Assembly (NCBI GenBank): GCA_963765495.1 | Contig: CAVXWP010000008.1 | Span: 160,001 to 224,000, forward strand | DNA length: 64,000 nt | Source: Blastocatellia bacterium | Lineage (GTDB): Bacteria > Acidobacteriota > Blastocatellia > UBA7656 | Reading direction: 5' to 3' | Shown: positions 916-60,898 of the stretch, piece after piece | Layout: the number at the start of each line of letters is the position of its first letter | Position numbering within the stretch: position 1 is the first letter of the stretch | Program-made: the position numbers and the translations under genes | Notes under the pieces: model-generated | The model's database searches: none | What the model was told of the DNA's origin: nothing | What the model saw: only the letters and a program-made list of their open reading frames with translations

Positions 916-1308
916 TCATGAGCAGCTCAAACTCTTCTTGGCATTTGTAAAAACTCTGCGCCGGAATTCAGGCATTGGCCCAAAGTTGAGCAATAGACCA
1001 ATCTCAATTTCTGTTGCTTTCAAATAATTCACCAACTGAGCTTCGTGGGCCTCGCAAATCACATCGGCTACTTTTAACTCCAAAATCACTATGTCTGCAA
1101 CCACTATATCAGCATAGTATTCGCCCACGAGTTGTCCTTGATAGTGAACCTTTATAGGCTGCTGCTGTCTGGCGGGTAGTCCTAATTTCCGCAATTCCAG
1201 TGTCAGAGCATTCTCATAGACCTTTTCGAGAAATCCATATCCCAAGGAGTTGTATGTTCTAAAGAAAGCCTTGATAATCCGGTCTGTCAGGTCTCTTTGC
1301 ACAAGCAT
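916..1308 (-). CDS. GxxExxY family protein (PD-(D/E)XK nuclease-like)
   Basis: 130 aa; GFLEKVY, YYADIVV..ILELK, QLVNYLKAT..GLLLNFG; aggagg RBS upstream. Confidence 0.93.
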   Translation of the reverse strand: MLVQRDLTDRIIKAFFRTYNSLGYGFLEKVYENALTLELRKLGLPARQQQPIKVHYQGQLVGEYYADIVVADIVILELKVADVICEAHEAQLVNYLKATEIEIGLLLNFGPMPEFRRRVFTNAKKSLSCS

Positions 1309-4660: not shown

Positions 4661-4783
4661 TGTCTACCTCCTGAAAGAGATTATCCGAATAAACAGCTTG
4701 CGTCGAAGGTGAAGAATAAACCACCACACAGCCCTCCGTCCAACAGGCCCGCGTCAGAAAAGGGAGGCGGTCAAATGAAGGTA

Positions 4784-4885
4784 ATGCGTGATGCGTGAAG
4801 AGTGAGAAAGAATTAGACCGGGTTGACAAGATTTAATGGATATTTAAAATCCTCATCTCTGGGAATCTTGTTAATCCTGTCAAAA
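4784..4885. repeat. intergenic short-repeat cluster (ATGCGTG units plus GACAAGATT / AATCCTGTC inverted pair)
   Basis: atgcgtgatgcgtga at 4784; ttgacaagatttaa ... ttaatcctgtcaa. Confidence 0.6.
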
Positions 4886-4899
4886 AAGACTGCGACGTT

Positions 4900-5793: not shown

Positions 5794-5807
5794 AATTTTG
5801 TGATTAG

Positions 5808-5886
5808 TGATGCGTGAATCGTGATGCGTGATCGGTTGTCTCAATTCAAAGCGTCTCTCCGGTCACGAATCACGATTCACGCATCA
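5808..5886. repeat. REP-like inverted pair of GATGCGT heptamer repeats
   Basis: tgatgcgtgaatcgtgat ... atcacgattcacgcatca; overlaps the argF' stop codon. Confidence 0.85.
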
Positions 5887-6894
5887 TCCCAGTATCGAGG
5901 CCAGCACGGCCTTTTGCACGTGCAGGCGGTTTTCGGCCTCGTCAATGCTCGCGTTGGTCGGCCCGTCGAGCACGCCGTCGGTCACTACTACGTTGCGGCG
6001 CACGGGCAAACAATGCATAAACCAGCCGTTACGGGTCGAACGCATCGCTTCTTCGTCTATCCGCCAGTGACGATACTTCTGGCGCAGGCTGATGTCCATA
6101 TCCGCGCGCCCGTAGAAATCCTTCCCGCCCCAGCTTTTTGCATAAACAATTTGAGCGCCTGTCACGGCTTCTGTGAAATCGCGCGAAATCTGTACACGCC
6201 CTCCGCTCGCATCAGCCGCAGTTTGGATCTCTGCCATCGCATCCGAGCCGAGATCATATTCGGGAGGGCAGGCGATTGTGAGATCGAGCCCGAACTGGGC
6301 CGCCACCAGCGCAAACGAATTAGGCACAGCCATAGGCAGAGGTTTTGGATGATATGCCCACGAAAGGACTACGGGTTGGCTGGCCAGGTCGCCAAGTTTT
6401 TCGCGTATGGTCATAATATCGGCCAGCGCCTGAAACGGATGATGACGCGATGATTCGAGATTAAAGACAGGCACATCGCTGTATCTGGCAAATCCTCGCA
6501 CTACCAGATCGGCCGATTCATGCTCGTAGTCGAGCATCTCTGGAAAGGCCCGGACGCCGATTGCCGCCACATAGCGCGAAAGCACCCTCGCGGCTTCCTT
6601 GATGTGCTCGGTTTTGTCCGCGTCCATCACTACGCCTTCGCGGTATTCCAGGCTCCACGAGCCCTTGCCTACGTCGAGCGTCACAGCGTTGCCGCCCAGA
6701 TCGTAAACGGCTATCTCCATCGACGCGCGCGTTCGCAGAGAAGGGTTGAAGAAGACGAGCGCCACACTGCGTCCGGCAAGCACTCGCTCGGCGTGCTCAC
6801 CGGCTTTGAACCTCGCGGCCAGGTCGATGAGCGAGGTCAACTCTCCGCGAGTGAAATCTGCCGTGCTGAGAAAATCTTTCTCTTTGATATTCAT
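5884..6894 (-). CDS. argF: N-acetyl/N-succinyl-ornithine carbamoyltransferase (ArgF' type)
   Basis: FFNPSLRTR, HPFQALAD, WAYHPKPLP (AOTCase/SOTCase-type loop), MHCLPVRR. Confidence 0.9.
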   Translation of the reverse strand: MNIKEKDFLSTADFTRGELTSLIDLAARFKAGEHAERVLAGRSVALVFFNPSLRTRASMEIAVYDLGGNAVTLDVGKGSWSLEYREGVVMDADKTEHIKEAARVLSRYVAAIGVRAFPEMLDYEHESADLVVRGFARYSDVPVFNLESSRHHPFQALADIMTIREKLGDLASQPVVLSWAYHPKPLPMAVPNSFALVAAQFGLDLTIACPPEYDLGSDAMAEIQTAADASGGRVQISRDFTEAVTGAQIVYAKSWGGKDFYGRADMDISLRQKYRHWRIDEEAMRSTRNGWFMHCLPVRRNVVVTDGVLDGPTNASIDEAENRLHVQKAVLASILG

Positions 6895-10258: not shown

Positions 10259-10289
10259 TCTCTTTCTCCTTGCTGTAATGTGAGGACAT

Positions 10290-10366
10290 TGATGCGTGAT
10301 GCGTGACCTTTCAGGTAGATGGCTGTTTACCAGCTAAACGCAAATTTCACGCATCACGCATCACGC
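10290..10366. repeat. REP-like inverted pair of GATGCGT repeats
   Basis: tgatgcgtgatgcgtga ... tcacgcatcacgcatcacgc; encodes the last residues and stop of argG (RDA*). Confidence 0.88.
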
Positions 10367-16288: not shown

Positions 16289-18841
16289 CTATTTATTACC
16301 TATAACGATGAAAGGTGCCCAATAATAGGGATGTCGCGTTTCCTTGCCGCTCTTTAGCATCTGGAGCTTTGCCTCGCGGAGCGCGGCGGCGCTGCCCGTC
16401 TTATCAAGCAAGTGGCGATAAAAATCTTTCATCAGATGGCTGGTCGAGATATCGCTGACATCCCAAAGACTTGCGACAACTGACCGTGCTCCCGCATAGA
16501 GAAAGGCGCGGCTCAACCCAACTATACCTTCCCCGGAATACAGACGTCCGCGCCCGGTTTGACAGGCGCTCAAGACTACCAGATCGCAATCCAGATCCAA
16601 TTCGGCAATCTCGCTTGCTTCCAGGAAACCGTCTTCCTGCGGGTCCATGTCCTGTGTGAGGACAACGGCGGATCGTGAGGGATCACTCACATCAACAAGA
16701 CTGTGTGTGGCAAAATGCAAGCGCCTGTAACGACGCAAGGGCTCTGCTTTAACCGCTTCTTCCGTGCAGTCCTTCCCCAGATAGACCCGTCGATGATCCG
16801 GCTTAAACAGCCCGGCAATTTCCTGAACCTCATCACGCGTCCTGGGGAGCGCGGAAAGATTATATCCGTCAGAAATTCTCATGGCTTGTCTTAGGACGTC
16901 TGCTTCGTCGCCGTTACGTTTTATTTTAGATGTCTGCGGCGCGAAGATTGGATCGCCAAAGGCGAGCAGGTCGAGTTTATCGTCGAGTTTATCGTCGAGT
17001 TTATCGCCGGGTTCATCTCCTTTCTTTGAAGCCCTCAACAAAGAGAGCATGCTCGCCGATGGGAGATAGCTGATTTCATGTTCCTCTATGAGAGAGTGCC
17101 CCTCCTGGTTAAGAGTCTCAAAAGGCAGATAGTAAAGAATGCCATCAGGGACAATGATAAACTTCTTGCCCGGTGCGAGTCGCTCGGCTAATCTGCCAAA
17201 TAATATCGCGGAGAGCCTTGCGGCTAAATCCCGCTGTCTGGCAAGCTCTCTATCGAGAAACAGATTATTGGGTCTGGTTGTAATGATGCTCAGGTACTGC
17301 TCGACCGCTTTTTCAATCTCCTGTCGTCCCGGCAAAATTTCCATTGAGACTTCATCTGGGGAAATCAGCCAGAGGAATGAATGTGACTCGCCTAAGAAGT
17401 ACTCTAACACACACCCATCATCCTGTCTCAGATTCTCTTGAATCTGCTCGACGCCAGCGGTCCGAAACCACGCGAATCTATCTTTGGTGTGTTGCATTTC
17501 GGTCTTTAGCTGTTCTTCCTTCAATTTGAATTCAGCCTCTTGAATGTCGGCTTCAATTTTTGCGCGTTGTTTTAGGCTTAATTGTGGGGAGAGCAACTGT
17601 ATGCGGAGGTCGGCCAGGGATCGGGATATCTCGCCGATTCTGCTGTCGTAATCAAGAAGTCTGGACGGTCCGTTTGTGTGTCGCGCCATTATCACAGAGA
17701 GGATGGCTCGAGATCTGGCCTGCTCGGTTTGGTTATAGGCTTCATTTATGCGACCCTGTTCGATCAAGAGTTCCACAAGCTCTCCATAAGGCGCGCGGCG
17801 CTCTTCGCCGAAAGCAATTGCCCCCGATTCTGTAGATTTGGTGACCGACAGCCAGATTCCTTCGATACGACCGATTGCGCGGAAGTATGATTTCACAGCC
17901 TCCTCTTTCAGGCCGTTTGCGCGTTGTGAACGAGCCAGTTCGAGAAAAGCTCGCCACTGCCATTCCCAGACTCCTCGCTTTTCGCCTTCGCTTGTGACCT
18001 GCTTAAATTGGATGGCAGCTAATTCAACGGCCTGTTGAGCGGCGTCCAGGGCTGCTTCCTTCTGCCCGGAAGCCAGACAGAGATCGGAAATTGAGGAAAG
18101 AACCCTGCCTTTTCCCTCTGCATTCGCTGTCTTTTGATAGATCGCGAGTGCCTCATTAAAGGCCGTGCGCGCCGCATCCTTCAGACCCTGCTGCTGAGCT
18201 ATACGACCAGACAGATGTAATAAAGCTGCTTCCATGTCAGCGTTCTTTTGCAGGCGATTCAATTGCCTTGCCTGTTCAATGAATGTGAAGGCCCGTCCTG
18301 TCTCCTTCGATTGATAGGAAAGCGCCGCCAATCCGACTAATGCTTCCGTCTGCGTATAGGCATCCCTGGCCCTGCGGGCCTGATCGAGTGCTTTCACGTA
18401 GTAACGCCCGGCAAGGTCGAAATTGTAGAGTTCAGCAAAAATTTTTGCGATGGAAGTAAAGGCAAGAGCTTTTATGCGGCTGGGAAGCGGTTTTACCTCA
18501 AGCGCCCGGTCGTAATAGTAAAGTGATTCCTGAAAGCGCTTCCTCTCTCTATAGGCATCACCGACCAGAAGAGCCGAATGCGCGGCCTTTTCAGGTTCTC
18601 GCAATTCAATCCATACTCGCATGGCTTCCAGAAGCCGTTCGCGTGCACCACTTTGATCGCTTGTTTCGGAGAGGCTAAGGGCATCTCTTACCAACTCTTC
18701 TGCCTTGCTAGCCGTTTCCGATTGACGGGCTGTTATTTTCGCCTCAGCACTACGGCCAGGAGCAAGAGATACTGTAGCGATCCAGAGAGCCAGACTCACC
18801 GCAAAAATTGTTATGCAGTTTGAAGAAAATTGTCGTATCAA
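16289..18841 (-). CDS. TPR-CHAT (caspase-like) domain protein with N-terminal signal/TM segment
   Basis: TPR helices; IVPDGILYYLPFETL, LHFATHS (catalytic His), VVLSACQTG (catalytic Cys), HPYYWAPF. Confidence 0.92.
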   Translation of the reverse strand: MIRQFSSNCITIFAVSLALWIATVSLAPGRSAEAKITARQSETASKAEELVRDALSLSETSDQSGARERLLEAMRVWIELREPEKAAHSALLVGDAYRERKRFQESLYYYDRALEVKPLPSRIKALAFTSIAKIFAELYNFDLAGRYYVKALDQARRARDAYTQTEALVGLAALSYQSKETGRAFTFIEQARQLNRLQKNADMEAALLHLSGRIAQQQGLKDAARTAFNEALAIYQKTANAEGKGRVLSSISDLCLASGQKEAALDAAQQAVELAAIQFKQVTSEGEKRGVWEWQWRAFLELARSQRANGLKEEAVKSYFRAIGRIEGIWLSVTKSTESGAIAFGEERRAPYGELVELLIEQGRINEAYNQTEQARSRAILSVIMARHTNGPSRLLDYDSRIGEISRSLADLRIQLLSPQLSLKQRAKIEADIQEAEFKLKEEQLKTEMQHTKDRFAWFRTAGVEQIQENLRQDDGCVLEYFLGESHSFLWLISPDEVSMEILPGRQEIEKAVEQYLSIITTRPNNLFLDRELARQRDLAARLSAILFGRLAERLAPGKKFIIVPDGILYYLPFETLNQEGHSLIEEHEISYLPSASMLSLLRASKKGDEPGDKLDDKLDDKLDLLAFGDPIFAPQTSKIKRNGDEADVLRQAMRISDGYNLSALPRTRDEVQEIAGLFKPDHRRVYLGKDCTEEAVKAEPLRRYRRLHFATHSLVDVSDPSRSAVVLTQDMDPQEDGFLEASEIAELDLDCDLVVLSACQTGRGRLYSGEGIVGLSRAFLYAGARSVVASLWDVSDISTSHLMKDFYRHLLDKTGSAAALREAKLQMLKSGKETRHPYYWAPFIVIGNK
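16970..17005. repeat. in-frame 12-bp tandem repeat x3
   Basis: (gtcgagtttatc)3, encoding DKLD-DKLD-DKLD in the CHAT gene. Confidence 0.9.
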
Positions 18842-18902
18842 GGGTTACCCATCTTTCAAATGGTTGGTCATTGTATCATCGCGCTGATTCTATTGAGAAT
18901 AC

Positions 18903-18957
18903 GATAAAGCTCTTTAGGACCGGGTTATGAACTAACCCGGTCCTAAAGAGCTTTATC
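18903..18957. repeat. perfect 25-bp inverted repeat with 5-nt loop
   Basis: gataaagctctttaggaccgggtta-tgaac-taacccggtcctaaagagctttatc. Confidence 0.92.
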
Positions 18958-18996
18958 ACAGTCACAAACAGGAAGGCCGCAGCCCGACAGAGCGTC

Positions 18997-34432: not shown

Positions 34433-34776
34433 AAATGATGCGTGATGCGTGACTTCAAGGAAACCTGCCTGTTAAAGATAATGTGCAAGGCCAGCAGGTC
34501 ATACCAAATCTTTTCAGATGACGACGTTTGACATTCGAATTCGTAAAATCATAATGATTTTCATCACGCAGGTTAGAATACTTGAAATAGGCCGGGACGG
34601 CCGCGGATGCGGCGGATTAGCGCGGATTAGACCTTATATGATCAGATCCGCGTAGATCCGCCGCATCCGCGGCCGTCCCGGCCTATTAAGGCAAGCCTCC
34701 CGTTCAAATTATGGGGCTATGTGATCTTTATCATCTCTATCTGGATAGATTTGGTATCACGCATCACGCATCATTT
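34433..34776. repeat. GATGCGT inverted pair (20-bp perfect arms) enclosing a second element
   Basis: aaatgatgcgtgatgcgtga at 34433-34452 / tcacgcatcacgcatcattt at 34757-34776. Confidence 0.88.
34582..34687 (+). mobile_element. gene-less (MITE/REPIN-like) relative of the GxxExxY element
   Basis: ~42-bp arms aataggccgggacggccgcggatgcggcggat...; shares outer ttgaaataggccg and asymmetric inner ends (ggattag / atgatcagatccgcg) with 843-1398. Confidence 0.75.
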
Positions 34777-42027: not shown

Positions 42028-42135
42028 TGATGATGCGTTATTCGAGATGCGTGATACGTGATTTCTGAAATAAGCACTTGACTGTTAACAGCCATCCGCC
42101 TGGAACTCACGCATCACTCTTCACGCATCACGCGT
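42028..42135. repeat. GATGCGT inverted pair
   Basis: tgatgatgcgt..gatgcgtgatacgtga ... tcacgcatcactcttcacgcatcacgc. Confidence 0.8.
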
Positions 42136-57249: not shown

Positions 57250-58857
57250 ATGCACGGCTGGATGAGAGATAGTATGGACATTCTCAAACTCGACATTGAA
57301 CAGACCGAATCATACGCGCTCACCGATAGGGAGAAGCGGTTTCAGGTAGCATTTCTGGCTGCGCTTGCCGCGACTGTTGCCGGATTCATTCTGCGCTTTG
57401 TCTTCGATGCCCCGCTCATGCCTGAGATGCTGGCCCAGTTTATCTTTGCCGTGTCCCCCATCTGGGCCGTCGAGATAGCCGTCGGATTCCTCGGCCCCTT
57501 TGCAAAGCATCTGGCCTTTCTCGCCTGCGTCGTCCTGTACGTGACAGCACTTGCGGCTGTGGCATTTGCTTTCCTTCGCTACTATGGCGGGCAGGGAACA
57601 GCTATGGCTCGGCGTCTGGCTATCGCACTTTTATCAATCATCCTCTGGGTAATAACTATGGCAGTCCTTATTCCATTGTTTGGAGCGGGACTGTTTGGCA
57701 AATATCTGCGCCAGGGGTCCATCTATTCATCAGTCTCGCTCTTGACCGTGTATGCGGTTTACGGGCTTTCGCTTGCGCTCCTGCCAAAGCTTTACCTCGA
57801 GAGCCTTAATCTATCGCGCGACAAAAATACATTTCTGAATCGCCGCAGAGTTATAAGAGGTATAGGCTACGCGGTGCTGCTCGTAGGTGTTTATGACATA
57901 GGCCGCTCGCTTATCGAGACATGGTTTTTGAAGGGATCGGGTAGGGTAAAGCAAGGCGACGGCGTCTTCCCAAATATAAACGGGCTTGCGGTTGAAATTA
58001 CTCCGAACGAGGACTTTTATGTGGTCTCGAAAAACGCCTTCGACCCCGAAGTCGATACCCAGCGCTGGCGACTGGAAGTGACGGGCATGGTCGAGAATTC
58101 CTTCTCGTTGACCTTTGATGAAATCAAGGCGATGCCCTCGGTTGAGCAATATGCCACGCTCGCCTGCATCAGCAATGAAGTCGGCGGAGATTTGATAGGC
58201 AACGCTTTGTGGAAAGGTGTGCGGGTTCGAGACCTGCTGGAACGCGCCGGATTACAACCCGGAGTGGTAGATATAAAGATGCGCGCGCGCGATGATTACA
58301 CCGATTCGATACCGCTCGACCGCGCGCTGGCCGATGGGACTATTCTGGTTTATGAAATGAACGACCAGCCGCTTGCCACCAAGCACGGCTTTCCGCTACG
58401 TCTGATAGTGCCGGGCATCTATGGCATGAAGAATGTAAAGTGGATAACCCGACTCGAAGCCGTCGGGCAGGATTTTAGAGGATACTGGCAAACGCGCGGA
58501 TGGGATGATCGAGCAGAGTACAAAACTATGTCGAGGATAGATGCGCCCGATGACGACGTTCGCTCTCAGGCGATTATTGCAGGCATAGCCTTCGCCGGTG
58601 ATCGTGGAGTCAGCAAAGTCGAAGTATCCACCGACGGCGGCAAAAGCTGGAACGAGGCCGAGTTGAAGCCGCCGCTTTCGCCTTACACTTGGGTGCTGTG
58701 GCATAGAGACTGGACTCCCGAACGCGCAGGCAAATACGCTGTAGTCGTGAGAGCGACCGACGGCCTTGGCAACACACAGACTGCTCAGTATGCGCCTCCT
58801 GCCCCGTCGGGCTCGACCGGCTATGACCGCGAGATAGTGGTGGTACGTGATGCGTGA
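57250..58857 (+). CDS. membrane-anchored sulfite oxidase-family (MsrP/YedY-like) molybdopterin oxidoreductase
   Basis: N-terminal TMs; TLACISNEVGG (Mo-ligating Cys), HGFPLRLIVPGIYGMKNVKW, VEVSTDGG dimer domain. Confidence 0.88.
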   Translation: MHGWMRDSMDILKLDIEQTESYALTDREKRFQVAFLAALAATVAGFILRFVFDAPLMPEMLAQFIFAVSPIWAVEIAVGFLGPFAKHLAFLACVVLYVTALAAVAFAFLRYYGGQGTAMARRLAIALLSIILWVITMAVLIPLFGAGLFGKYLRQGSIYSSVSLLTVYAVYGLSLALLPKLYLESLNLSRDKNTFLNRRRVIRGIGYAVLLVGVYDIGRSLIETWFLKGSGRVKQGDGVFPNINGLAVEITPNEDFYVVSKNAFDPEVDTQRWRLEVTGMVENSFSLTFDEIKAMPSVEQYATLACISNEVGGDLIGNALWKGVRVRDLLERAGLQPGVVDIKMRARDDYTDSIPLDRALADGTILVYEMNDQPLATKHGFPLRLIVPGIYGMKNVKWITRLEAVGQDFRGYWQTRGWDDRAEYKTMSRIDAPDDDVRSQAIIAGIAFAGDRGVSKVEVSTDGGKSWNEAELKPPLSPYTWVLWHRDWTPERAGKYAVVVRATDGLGNTQTAQYAPPAPSGSTGYDREIVVVRDA

Positions 58858-58952
58858 TAGATGATGCGTGATGCGTGATTTATCTGTCTTGCAACTTTTA
58901 TTTCACAGGCAGCCTGGCTGAAAGTCACGCATCACCTATCACGCATCACGCA
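58846..58952. repeat. GATGCGT inverted pair joining two convergent stop codons
   Basis: cgtgatgcgtgatagatgatgcgtga / tcacgcatcacctatcacgcatcacg (26 bp, one mismatch). Confidence 0.9.
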
Positions 58953-59903
58953 CTATTTCTTCTTTCGGTGAGCCAGCGTGTTTCGTTCCCAGAAGAGGCC
59001 CTCGCTGTAGCCCTGTATCTCGTGATTAGAACCGGCCATCTCCAGACGTTTTTCAGCAAGGCAGCAATAGTTTTCATCTATCTCCACGCCGATGAAATGC
59101 CGGTTGAGCTTGCGGGCAACCGCCGAGGTAGTGCCAGAACCGAGAAACGGATCAAAGACGACATCTCCCGGATTACTGCTTGCCAGGATGATTTTCGCCA
59201 GCAGCTTCTCTGGTTTCTGCGTGGGGTGATCCGTGTTTTCAGCCATAGACCAGAAGGGAATTGTCACATCAGTCCAGAGGTTCGACGGATGCGTTAGTCG
59301 AAAGCGACCATCCTTGCCGTCCTGCCAGCCCTTTGGCTGCCCGTCCTCGGTGTAGGGCGCGATGACCTGCCGCTTCAATTTCACCGCGTCAAGATTGAAT
59401 GTATAGCTGTTTGACATGGTGAAAAACCATATGTCTTCCGAGCAGTTTTTCCAGTTACTCTTTGCGCCCCGGCCTTTTTCGCGTTCCCACGTGATGCGAT
59501 TTCGAACGGCAAAATATCTGGCCCCAGCCGTGTGAATTGCCGCCGATGACCTCCAGTCTCCACAGATGTAAATGGAAGCCGTGGGCCTGAGCAGCCTGAC
59601 GGTTTCCGATAGCCATCGGTCGAGCCACGCTTCATACTCGCTCAAAGAAGTGGAGTGGAATTTCTCTTTGTTGAATGTCTTGGACAGGTTATAAGGTGGG
59701 TCGGCAAACAGCAGATCAATCGAGTTTGCAGGCAAGTGTTTTAGCGCCTGAAATACATCCTGGCAGATGATTTTATCAATCACGCGATCCGCCGTGACCG
59801 CACCGGAGAGGCTTAAAAGACGCTCTCTGTAGCGACTTCTTTCTTCTTCGCTCAGAGTAATAGTGCGATTGCGCGAGGCGAGGTTCTTCTCTCGATTTGC
59901 CAT
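58953..59903 (-). CDS. orphan beta-class DNA N6-A/N4-C methyltransferase (YhdJ-like)
   Basis: ADPPY precedes HPTQKPE and DPFLGSGTT; no adjacent endonuclease. Confidence 0.9.
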   Translation of the reverse strand: MANREKNLASRNRTITLSEEERSRYRERLLSLSGAVTADRVIDKIICQDVFQALKHLPANSIDLLFADPPYNLSKTFNKEKFHSTSLSEYEAWLDRWLSETVRLLRPTASIYICGDWRSSAAIHTAGARYFAVRNRITWEREKGRGAKSNWKNCSEDIWFFTMSNSYTFNLDAVKLKRQVIAPYTEDGQPKGWQDGKDGRFRLTHPSNLWTDVTIPFWSMAENTDHPTQKPEKLLAKIILASSNPGDVVFDPFLGSGTTSAVARKLNRHFIGVEIDENYCCLAEKRLEMAGSNHEIQGYSEGLFWERNTLAHRKKK

Positions 59904-60709: not shown

Positions 60710-60898
60710 AAATGGCGTGGTCATACGCGTAATCCGAAAATTGCGATTTATCTTTTTGACAGGATTAACAGGATTCAATCTGCCGAGACGATCGGAAACC
60801 ACCGGTTGTTTTATGATAATGTTTTGCCTGCTTTGCGGCTTTGCACCTTTGCGCGAATCTATATTTCGCAAAACCGCAATCGCCCTGAGTACGCAAAG
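60710..60898. repeat. cluster of short intergenic repeats (ACAGGATT and CTTTGCG families)
   Basis: ttgacaggattaacaggatt; ctttgcggctttgcacctttgcgc; acgcaaag. Confidence 0.6.

Follow-up and report, generated by a model that had tools for sequence, protein, structure and literature searches.

Bacterial genomes can carry short palindromes without any gene next to longer elements that share the same ends and hold one, and the question raised by such a pair is whether the two represent forms of a single repeat family and whether the encoded protein acts on the gene-less copies. The pair considered here is located in a 64,000-nt stretch of the genome of a Blastocatellia bacterium from soil (assembly GCA_963765495.1, contig CAVXWP010000008.1, positions 160,001 to 224,000; hereafter the window). 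It consists of a 106-bp palindrome at 34582-34687, in the spacer between two convergent genes, and a unit 33 kb away in which similar arms enclose a gene for a small protein of the GxxExxY family. A first-pass annotation had described the palindrome as an internal-deletion derivative of this unit. The analysis provides good support for the palindrome being an ordinary gene-less member of a repeat family, the gene-bearing form of which holds the GxxExxY gene.

The palindrome and its family in the source genome

The palindrome and the gene-bearing unit are made up as follows:

34582-34627, no strand: left arm of the palindrome, TTGAAATAGGCC GGGACGG CCGCGGAT GCG GCGGAT TAG CGCGGAT
34628-34645, no strand: asymmetric loop of 18 nt, TAGACCTTATATGATCAG, the family loop in the orientation 'B-end left, A-end right'
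34646-34687, no strand: right arm, the left arm inverted
843-899, no strand: gene-unit arm with the A-type inner end CTGATCAT
916-1308, minus strand: GxxExxY gene, 130 aa, minimal PD-(D/E)XK nuclease (TIGR04256, PF13366) with E28, D67, E77 and K79 all in place
1347-1398, no strand: other gene-unit arm, with the B-type inner end CTAAT

The left arm of the palindrome comprises TTGAA and the AATAGGCC cap, followed by four word modules (the GGGACGG variant, CGCGGAT, GCGGAT and CGCGGAT) at a spacing of 9-10 bp, and the loop lies at the position that is occupied by the gene in the gene-bearing copy. A repeat search of the window returned palindrome arms of 51 nt each (86% complementary, no gap), which match the gene-unit arms (843-891 and 1350-1398; 49 nt, 98% complementary to each other) at 87% over 46 nt, 83% over 42 nt, 88% over 50 nt and 86% over 49 nt. 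Read on the minus strand, the gene unit runs ...CGCGGATTAG-(447 nt, 900-1346)-ATGATCAGATCCGCG..., and the gene-less element runs ...CGCGGATTAG-ACCTTAT-ATGATCAGATCCGCG... Both the letters and the arm matches thus bear out the annotated retention of the two arms and their asymmetric inner ends, with 7 bp in place of an interior that had been put at ~445 bp. The variant module described for both arms was likewise located in each of them (GGGACGG at 34595-34601 and CCGTCCC at 34673-34679), and pairing is preserved for the variant of this copy.

In the source genome (G000; 7.3 Mb, 17 contigs, 98% complete, with the window on contig 8), each AATAGGCC was joined to the next GGCCTATT within a limit of 3 kb. 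This yielded 97 pairs, 47 of which span 101-104 nt; a single pair, of 542 nt, represents the gene unit, and nested forms of smaller size (21, 27, 33, 83 and 93 nt) were also present. An nhmmer profile made from the 47 full copies (E<=1e-3, non-overlapping loci counted) identified 209 loci across the genome. Both arms are present at 131 of these, a left arm alone at 32 and a right arm alone at 35 (67 single arms in all), and the other 11 are partial copies. The lone left-arm/right-arm pair that is split by a short distance (445 nt) represents the gene unit, and the expected further copies of the element are thus present, one of them being filled by a gene. Furthermore, the 15-mer GCGGATGCGGCGGAT occurs 37 + 37 times in the genome, as compared with ~0 expected occurrences.

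Copies throughout the family, in either orientation, were shown to have the asymmetric inner ends (CGCGGATCTGA on one side and CGCGGATTARA on the other), and their 18-nt loop is conserved; therefore, the 106-bp element represents the standard form of the family and not a deletion derivative peculiar to these two loci. The central 7-8 nt of its loop were found to be unlike either end of the gene-unit interior, on which ground an origin of the loop by mere joining of the ends left by a deletion in the present gene unit, and with it the annotated descent from the unit 33 kb away, was rejected. The source genome fits either direction of the change, i.e. deletion of a gene or insertion of one.

The arms of the family follow a common plan of four CGGAT words, 9-10 bp apart (one per helical turn), together with the AATAGGCC cap. 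Alignment of the 131 two-armed copies revealed high information content at the cap and at every CGGAT core, and low information content in the spacers. Complementarity between arms was less pronounced: Watson-Crick cells amounted to 0.807, compared with 0.779 when right arms were shuffled (standard deviation 0.006, maximum 0.797), the outer module was the same in the left and right arms of 62 copies and different in 31, and the innermost spacer was often unlike between arms (TTT with CTA in 17 copies, CTA with TTT in 13). The annotated preservation of arm pairing, which holds for the variant of the 34582 copy, is thus weak family-wide. Judged by this pattern of conservation, the arms resemble a set of recognition sites aligned along the same side of the helix more than they resemble a stem maintained for base pairing.

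Approximately 35 of the single arms are hybrids, in which the arm is followed by rows of the unrelated heptamers ACTGCCT, CCGGCCC or TCATCCC. Examples in G000 are found at C1:955366-955500, C8:608997-609130 and C7:361251-361304 (contig:positions), where a CGGAT arm, a spacer of ~20 nt (CTGATCATGGCTTCAAAATA) and tandem heptamers follow one another, and an extended -10-like TGnTAnAAT box is frequent in the upstream flank of such hybrid elements.

The GxxExxY protein

The GxxExxY gene has a GGAGG ribosome-binding site at its 5' side, and its deduced product matched TIGR04256 (E 4.7e-38, 130.1 bits, cut-off 35) and PF13366 (E 2.5e-39, 134.7 bits, cut-off 22), with PF13366 as the sole family matched. 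A search of the 98%-complete genome with TIGR04256 returned one match, indicative of a single-copy gene. In an alignment of 51 sequences, residues G25, E28, Y31, D67 and K79 were invariant and E77 was present in at least 90%. The AlphaFold model of the protein, with a restriction-endonuclease-like fold and a PD-(D/E)XK core, exhibited a mean predicted local distance difference test (pLDDT) score of 93.4, and its best Foldseek matches were Cas4 SSO0001 (E 2e-4, template modelling score 0.58), lambda-type exonucleases and Hjc resolvases. A sequence search of the PDB detected no solved relative, and neither PHROGs nor PADLOC contained a family matching the protein. From the retained residues and the predicted fold, the protein looks to be active as a nuclease.

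Association of arm words with the protein clade

Of 31 genomes of the class (0-7 copies each), 23 encode GxxExxY genes, and 55 loci were fetched. At most of these loci, the gene lies between inverted rows of a word specific to the locus, such as CACAGAG, CACAAAG, CACGAAG, CGCCAAG, CACAGAT, CGGAT or reverse-complemented CGCAAAG. A tree was built from 51 GxxExxY proteins encoded by 24 genomes, and in it the window protein falls into a clade of nine rows from seven genomes (Shimodaira-Hasegawa-like approximate likelihood ratio test support 97, at most 65% identity), eight of which have CGGAT arms. Across the whole tree, the word labels require 21 changes, compared with 35.2 for shuffled labels, and none of 200 shuffles gave a number as low.

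The clade alignment (nine sequences) was scanned over the genomes of 185,579 species, and the 80 closest loci returned (56-67% identity) come from records naming Bacteroidota, Ignavibacteriota, Acidobacteriota, Chloroflexota classes (Anaerolineae), Gemmataceae, Proteobacteria (Gammaproteobacteria) and Heliomicrobium. At least two inward-reading RCNGAT words were present in both flanks of 52 of the 78 evaluable loci, as compared with 9 for the outward-reading control, and many also retain the ATAGNNC cap and the GGATGACGCGGAT phasing. Non-coding arms that can be recognised at 56-67% protein identity must be subject to selection tied to the clade, and by this sequence comparison gene and arms form an old, coherent unit.

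The abundance of gene-less arrays was compared between genomes by counting CGGAT-N3-5-CGGAT-N3-5-CGGAT on both strands, for which the reversed pattern, used as a control, gave 0-2. Arrays numbered 367 in G000, 97 in G009, 96 in G013, 46 in G028, 40 in G024, 24 in G003 and 15 in G002, and all seven genomes encode a member of the clade, whereas the 14 genomes of family f1 without such a member contain 0-7 arrays. The expectation that copy number tracks the cognate clade is thus matched by these seven genomes, with three exceptions that are considered below. In G028, CGGAT arrays also occur on one strand at a spacing of ~109 nt, tandem and not palindromic (e.g. C24:162747-162988, C63:12963-13213 and C86:16299-16539).

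Two relatives were shown to possess gene-bearing and gene-less forms with an end motif of their own. The arms of the G013 gene start with ATAGACCACGGAT, a motif with 133 occurrences in G013 (one mismatch allowed) and 68 in G003, the majority of which form inverted pairs ~85 nt across; five of six gene-less G013 loci that were fetched are bare palindromes of ~85 nt with unique flanks. The arms of the G009 gene start with CCAGCGGAT, and for CCAGCGGAT-N3-4-CGGAT, 37 occurrences were counted in G009 and eight in G002, as compared with 0-1 in G000, G003 and G013. Motifs in the outer flanks (a repeat of ACGGAAA type and TTTCCCAGC...GCTGGGAAA) are common to the gene unit and most of the eight gene-less copies fetched from G009, with the flanks of the gene unit itself fitting them only loosely. 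With G013 and G009 each having its own end motif, the pairing of a gene-bearing with a gene-less form has thus been seen three times. At the ends of the bare palindrome, no target-site duplication was seen.

A further inverted match of 24 nt (96%), composed of CAGGATT-type words (TTTTTGACAGGATTAACAGGATTC), links 4863-4886 and 60753-60776 of the window, and a word of this type also flanks a GxxExxY gene of the relative G020 (locus L008).

A candidate role for the nuclease and the evidence against it

These associations incline us towards a cognate-nuclease reading, which we hold to be somewhat probable: the gene-less copies would be the non-autonomous counterpart of the GxxExxY unit, and the nuclease would act on them. 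In such a scheme, the small PD-(D/E)XK nuclease would recognise the phased words on both arms and act in trans on gene-less copies by cutting; alternatively to cutting, it might promote duplication or maintenance of copies via host repair. That the nuclease mobilises or maintains the copies is inferred by association, namely from the clade-specific words found across phyla, from an abundance that follows the clade and from the single-copy gene. The annotated autonomous/non-autonomous pair accordingly stands in so far as gene-less and gene-bearing forms belong to one family, while the nuclease is a candidate for the mobiliser.

A number of observations weigh against this role, the first of which concern the arrival of the 34582 copy itself. 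The palindrome is carried by a larger repeat that interrupts another palindrome:

34501-34757, plus strand: composite repeat of 257 bp that carries the palindrome, with the ends ATACCAAATCT (34501-34511) and AGATTTGGTAT (34747-34757) forming an 11-nt inverted repeat
34528-34555, plus strand: putative promoter-like site, TTGACA-16-CATAAT (11/12), in the upstream module and aimed into the palindrome
34436-34500, no strand: left part of a host palindrome from the CACGCAT heptamer family, with its arm TGATGCGTGATGCGTGA at 34436-34452 followed by the loop; interrupted by the composite
34758-34773, no strand: right arm of the host palindrome, CACGCATCACGCATCA, CACGCAT family

Within the composite, an upstream module (34502-34582, 81 nt) is followed by the palindrome and a downstream module (34688-34756, 69 nt). 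The upstream module was detected at 20 genome loci, 15 of which lie beside a CGGAT element, and the downstream module at seven; the putative promoter-like site is kept in other copies of the upstream module. In a copy on contig 7, the palindrome is identical except for an internal duplication of 16 bp, and the modules differ at several positions. In an uninterrupted relative of the host palindrome (G000:C9:376743), the host loop runs straight into the right arm. The interrupted palindrome and its intact relative represent direct evidence of insertion, and what was inserted is the 257-bp composite rather than the lone 106-bp palindrome; the copy at 34582 therefore came inside the composite and not by an insertion of its own. 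A TA duplication at the composite (34501-34757) is possible. Orthologues of the neighbouring permease (78-81% identity) were identified in seven relatives, in which the TPR-like neighbour is not adjacent; the element was absent from all seven regions downstream of these orthologues, which do not represent a clean empty site. Among the sequencing runs listed, no RNA run contained the locus and one DNA run contained 0.45 of the sampled words, from which the contigs were short and shallow. Two apparent joints in these contigs, from 34452 or 34455 to 34756, had 20 letters on the shorter side, most likely derive from other CACGCAT palindromes and were not used as evidence.

A second carrier resembles a miniature inverted-repeat transposable element (MITE). 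Its 17-nt terminal repeats, CAGGGCCATTCAGTTTT, gave 192 matches in the genome (up to 3 substitutions), compared with 8 for the reversed control, and form 44 complete pairs that cluster near 142 and 222 nt. Target duplications of 9-10 bp were observed at several of the copies so bounded, e.g. ATTGCGACT, AGAGAGTTA, GCTTCCTTC and ATGTTAATCC. Of the 209 CGGAT loci, 29 are enclosed by a pair of these ends, another 30 lie near a single end and the other 150 show no such end within 200 nt, and many seemingly bare flanks resemble degraded inner parts of the same MITE. Approximately 20 of the 209 loci are located in the composite with upstream and downstream modules, and the gene unit itself lacks the outer parts of both types of composite. 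Composites and hybrids taken together, other carriers than the nuclease can therefore account for much of the spread in the source genome. Moreover, arrival in a composite and the occurrence of at least 29 copies in MITEs make the 34582 copy poor evidence for mobility of the GxxExxY unit, although it had been put forward as the best evidence available. Examples of the MITE with the AATAGGCC palindrome inside, in mini or full form, are found at C6:35400-35660, C9:271100-271350, C8:829560-829701 and C7:15475-15623. At C9:271022-271381 and C1:973688-973962, CGGAT elements are nested in palindromes of other heptamer families (CACGCAT-type and ACTGCCT).

The same layout is also found around proteins that are not nucleases. 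The genome is rich in tandem arrays of exact heptamers of many families, and four of these families enclose a gene for a four-helix-bundle protein (TIGR02436, E 1e-24 to 3e-34):

C1:725061-725381: four-helix-bundle gene
C1:1070960-1071277: four-helix-bundle gene
C7:193647-193967: four-helix-bundle gene
C1:951934-952254: four-helix-bundle gene

Each gene lies between inverted rows of one heptamer (GGGGCCA, TTTTGAG, AGGGATG or GATTTTR), for which 9, 33, 56 and 18 gene-less close inverted pairs, respectively, were counted. Together with the GxxExxY unit, the pattern of one filled and many empty copies thus occurs five times in this genome, four of them with a non-nuclease. Conversely, no gene-bearing copy occurs in the largest families (127 close inverted pairs for CACGCAT, 52 for ACTGCCT and 46 for AATCACG). 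These parallels and orphan families fit two accounts, i.e. word-reading proteins of two folds, some of which have been lost, or generic vehicles with passenger genes.

The remaining points concern the comparison between genomes. G023 contains 462 arrays and a gene of the sister clade only, the visible flank of which has CGGAT words; G020 contains 38 arrays with no CGGAT-type gene seen; and G019 contains 20 arrays with no GxxExxY match at all. These three exceptions share one genus and are therefore not independent of one another, and related genomes in the abundance comparison are, more generally, not independent samples. Taken together, the carriers, the parallel cases with four-helix-bundle genes, the families without a gene and the three exceptional genomes weaken the claim that the nuclease acts as mobiliser.

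The CACGCAT family comprises 453 arrays genome-wide, with no gene-bearing copy found, and its palindromes occupy short intergenic spacers of the window at 4781-4813, 5800-5889, 10289-10366, 42030-42133 and 58843-58953. The window also contains an inverted repeat of 35 nt at 18893-18967 (89% complementary, 5-nt gap) and, inside the long open reading frame (ORF) 16289-18841, three to four tandem copies of the 12-nt unit GTCGAGTTTATC (16970-17017).

Alternative explanations

The strongest alternative holds that the palindromes constitute an independent family of repetitive extragenic palindromic (REP) or bacterial interspersed mosaic element (BIME) type, or one borne by MITEs, dispersed by machinery other than the nuclease, in which GxxExxY and four-helix-bundle genes have lodged as cargo in the apex, the filled unit having arisen from an empty copy by passenger insertion or homing. 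The MITE-type terminal repeats around many copies, with 9-bp duplications at several, and the position of the 34582 copy in a composite are as this account predicts. So are the four other word families with a four-helix-bundle gene at the apex, the three large gene-free families, the arrays without a cognate gene in G019 and G020, and the conserved family loop, of which the gene replaces just the central 7-8 nt. However, a homing gene should accumulate, and a single one of 131 two-armed copies is filled. Nor does random lodging predict that, across several phyla and at a protein identity of 56-67%, a clade retains word, cap and phasing; five of the six G013 loci are bare palindromes with unique flanks, and no CAGGGCCATTCAGTTTT end pair 0.7-4 kb apart in the genome encloses a transposase-like ORF, so that no insertion sequence with the terminal repeats of the MITE was found. 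We therefore regard this passenger account as rather unlikely, but as one to be taken seriously.

A host-level structural element, i.e. a bidirectional terminator, an mRNA-stabilising hairpin or a small RNA kept for its stem-loop, with the nearby gene-bearing copy being incidental, appears improbable. Such a function would suit a long near-perfect hairpin in a spacer between convergent genes, into which a conserved promoter-like site points, and the available text on the heptamer repeats of Xanthomonas describes most of them as transcribed (Rehm et al., PMC4692102). A crude ORF map places 191 of the 209 loci in intergenic gaps, of which 114 are tandem, 43 convergent and 34 divergent. Nonetheless, the convergent share is mildly raised only, 43 of 191 compared with 446 of 2800 background gaps (1690 tandem and 664 divergent), and orientation of the element relative to neighbouring genes is unbiased (38 same, 31 opposite). 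Across the 64-kb window, Rfam 15 gave no match at or above the gathering score, with sub-threshold generic hairpin (miRNA-precursor) models as the only hits at this locus, and a terminator scan returned no match and no terminator-like T run. Conservation is concentrated on the words, with pairing slightly above that of shuffled arms, and neither the 67 single arms nor the hybrids are able to form the hairpin.

The genome encodes two Y1-transposase genes (PF01797), both of them away from the gene unit. One (C17:144209-144484, in the region C17:144000-144650, outside the window) is a typical REP-associated tyrosine transposase (RAYT) gene with inverted GTAGGGGCAGGGCTTGTCCC-type REPs on both sides, and the second sits among different small hairpins. 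An ordinary REP family served by this RAYT is highly improbable and was rejected as the origin of the repeat, even though a RAYT-like gene between inverted REPs is present, since the flanks of both Y1 genes carry other repeats with neither AATAGGCC nor CGGAT sequence, GTAGGGGCAGGGCTTGTCCC is unrelated to the CGGAT arms, and the REP family is small, its core motif GGGGCAGGGC making five inverted pairs only. As the RAYT has a different REP, the CGGAT repeat does not track it, and the nuclease link is therefore not refuted on this count.

Comparison with known repeat systems

By analogy, the pairing of gene and repeat is akin to known systems of a repeat and its enzyme, with an enzyme unrelated to theirs. 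The closest of these, REPIN/RAYT, combines REP doublets (REPINs) with a single-copy RAYT, according to the available text of PMC3116915 and PMC3337134. As in that system, a gene present once lies between inverted repeats of the same type as gene-less palindromic doublets found genome-wide; the repeats are genome-specific in sequence and intergenic, and some persist in gene-free genomes; and across genomes the repeat family is found, and varies, together with the gene, except for G019, G020 and G023. The enzyme is where membership fails, being a 130-aa PD-(D/E)XK nuclease (PF13366) and not a Y1/HUH transposase (PF01797). In addition, the arms are rows of four phased words, in contrast to the one REP hairpin of RAYT systems, and the true RAYT of the source genome has its own, other REP.

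The likeness to MITEs and insertion sequences lies in a short gene-less and a longer gene-bearing form that share ends, and in an internal-deletion series (here 102, 93, 83, 33, 27 and 21 nt). In contrast to these elements, the bare palindrome has no target-site duplication that was seen, and the GxxExxY protein is no known transposase; the features typical of MITEs, 17-nt terminal repeats and 9-bp duplications, are found on larger composites with the palindrome inside, for which no insertion-sequence partner was found. We know of no transposition chemistry for a GxxExxY protein.

Intervening sequences (IVSs) of 23S rRNA genes are located in helix 25 or 45 and are excised by RNase III. Some of them bear an ORF, as described in the available text on the Coxiella burnetii IVS with S23p (PMC4990558), and, as here, this small ORF lies within complementary arms. 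The S23p/four-helix-bundle family (TIGR02436) is, moreover, the one found at the apex of the four other word-array palindromes of the source genome. Unlike IVSs, both loci of the window lie between protein-coding genes and not in rRNA, the cargo is a nuclease and there are hundreds of gene-less copies.

Finally, the available parts of Rehm et al. (2015, PMC4692102) describe heptameric repeats, GGGAATC in Xanthomonas and GGGGAYT in Nostoc, which are intergenic and often form inverted pairs (70-75 such pairs per Xanthomonas genome), and treat them as G-quadruplex-forming simple repeats that are generally not associated with mobile elements. Intergenic arrays of approximately four short units are common to both systems, and the source genome contains many exact-heptamer families; the words of the CGGAT family, however, recur every 9-10 bp with spacers that vary, and the family is not rich in G. 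In those parts, the heptamer account makes no link to GxxExxY or four-helix-bundle genes. Within the literature on GxxExxY, PDDEXK_3, TIGR02436 and related repeats, supplements being outside the search, no description of the gene-repeat link was found: GxxExxY appeared in passing mentions only, PDDEXK_3 was listed with unknown function and nothing was found for TIGR02436.

Implications

Dispersed palindromic repeats are common in bacteria and, to our knowledge, REP/RAYT is the only pairing that ties them to an enzyme. The Blastocatellia genome offers a clean case, in which one small nuclease gene is accompanied by ~200 gene-less copies with the same ends, the true RAYT of the same genome provides an internal control and four four-helix-bundle genes exhibit a parallel layout. 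A broader proposal, which is tentative and short of probable, is that GxxExxY nucleases and, in parallel, S23p-like four-helix-bundle proteins are single-copy 'keepers' of word-array palindromes: each clade would read its own word of 5-7 nt, once per helical turn and on both arms, and thereby sustain gene-less copies in trans. This would represent a second, independently evolved partnership of the REPIN/RAYT type, widespread across phyla and with at least five systems in the source genome. Even if the proteins do not read the arm words, the result shows that palindromic modules are recycled among composite repeats. If they do, this would explain the role of the GxxExxY and S23p-like families, the origin of heptamer repeats and the appearance of 23S rRNA IVSs, and these proteins would be small, programmable binders of DNA words.

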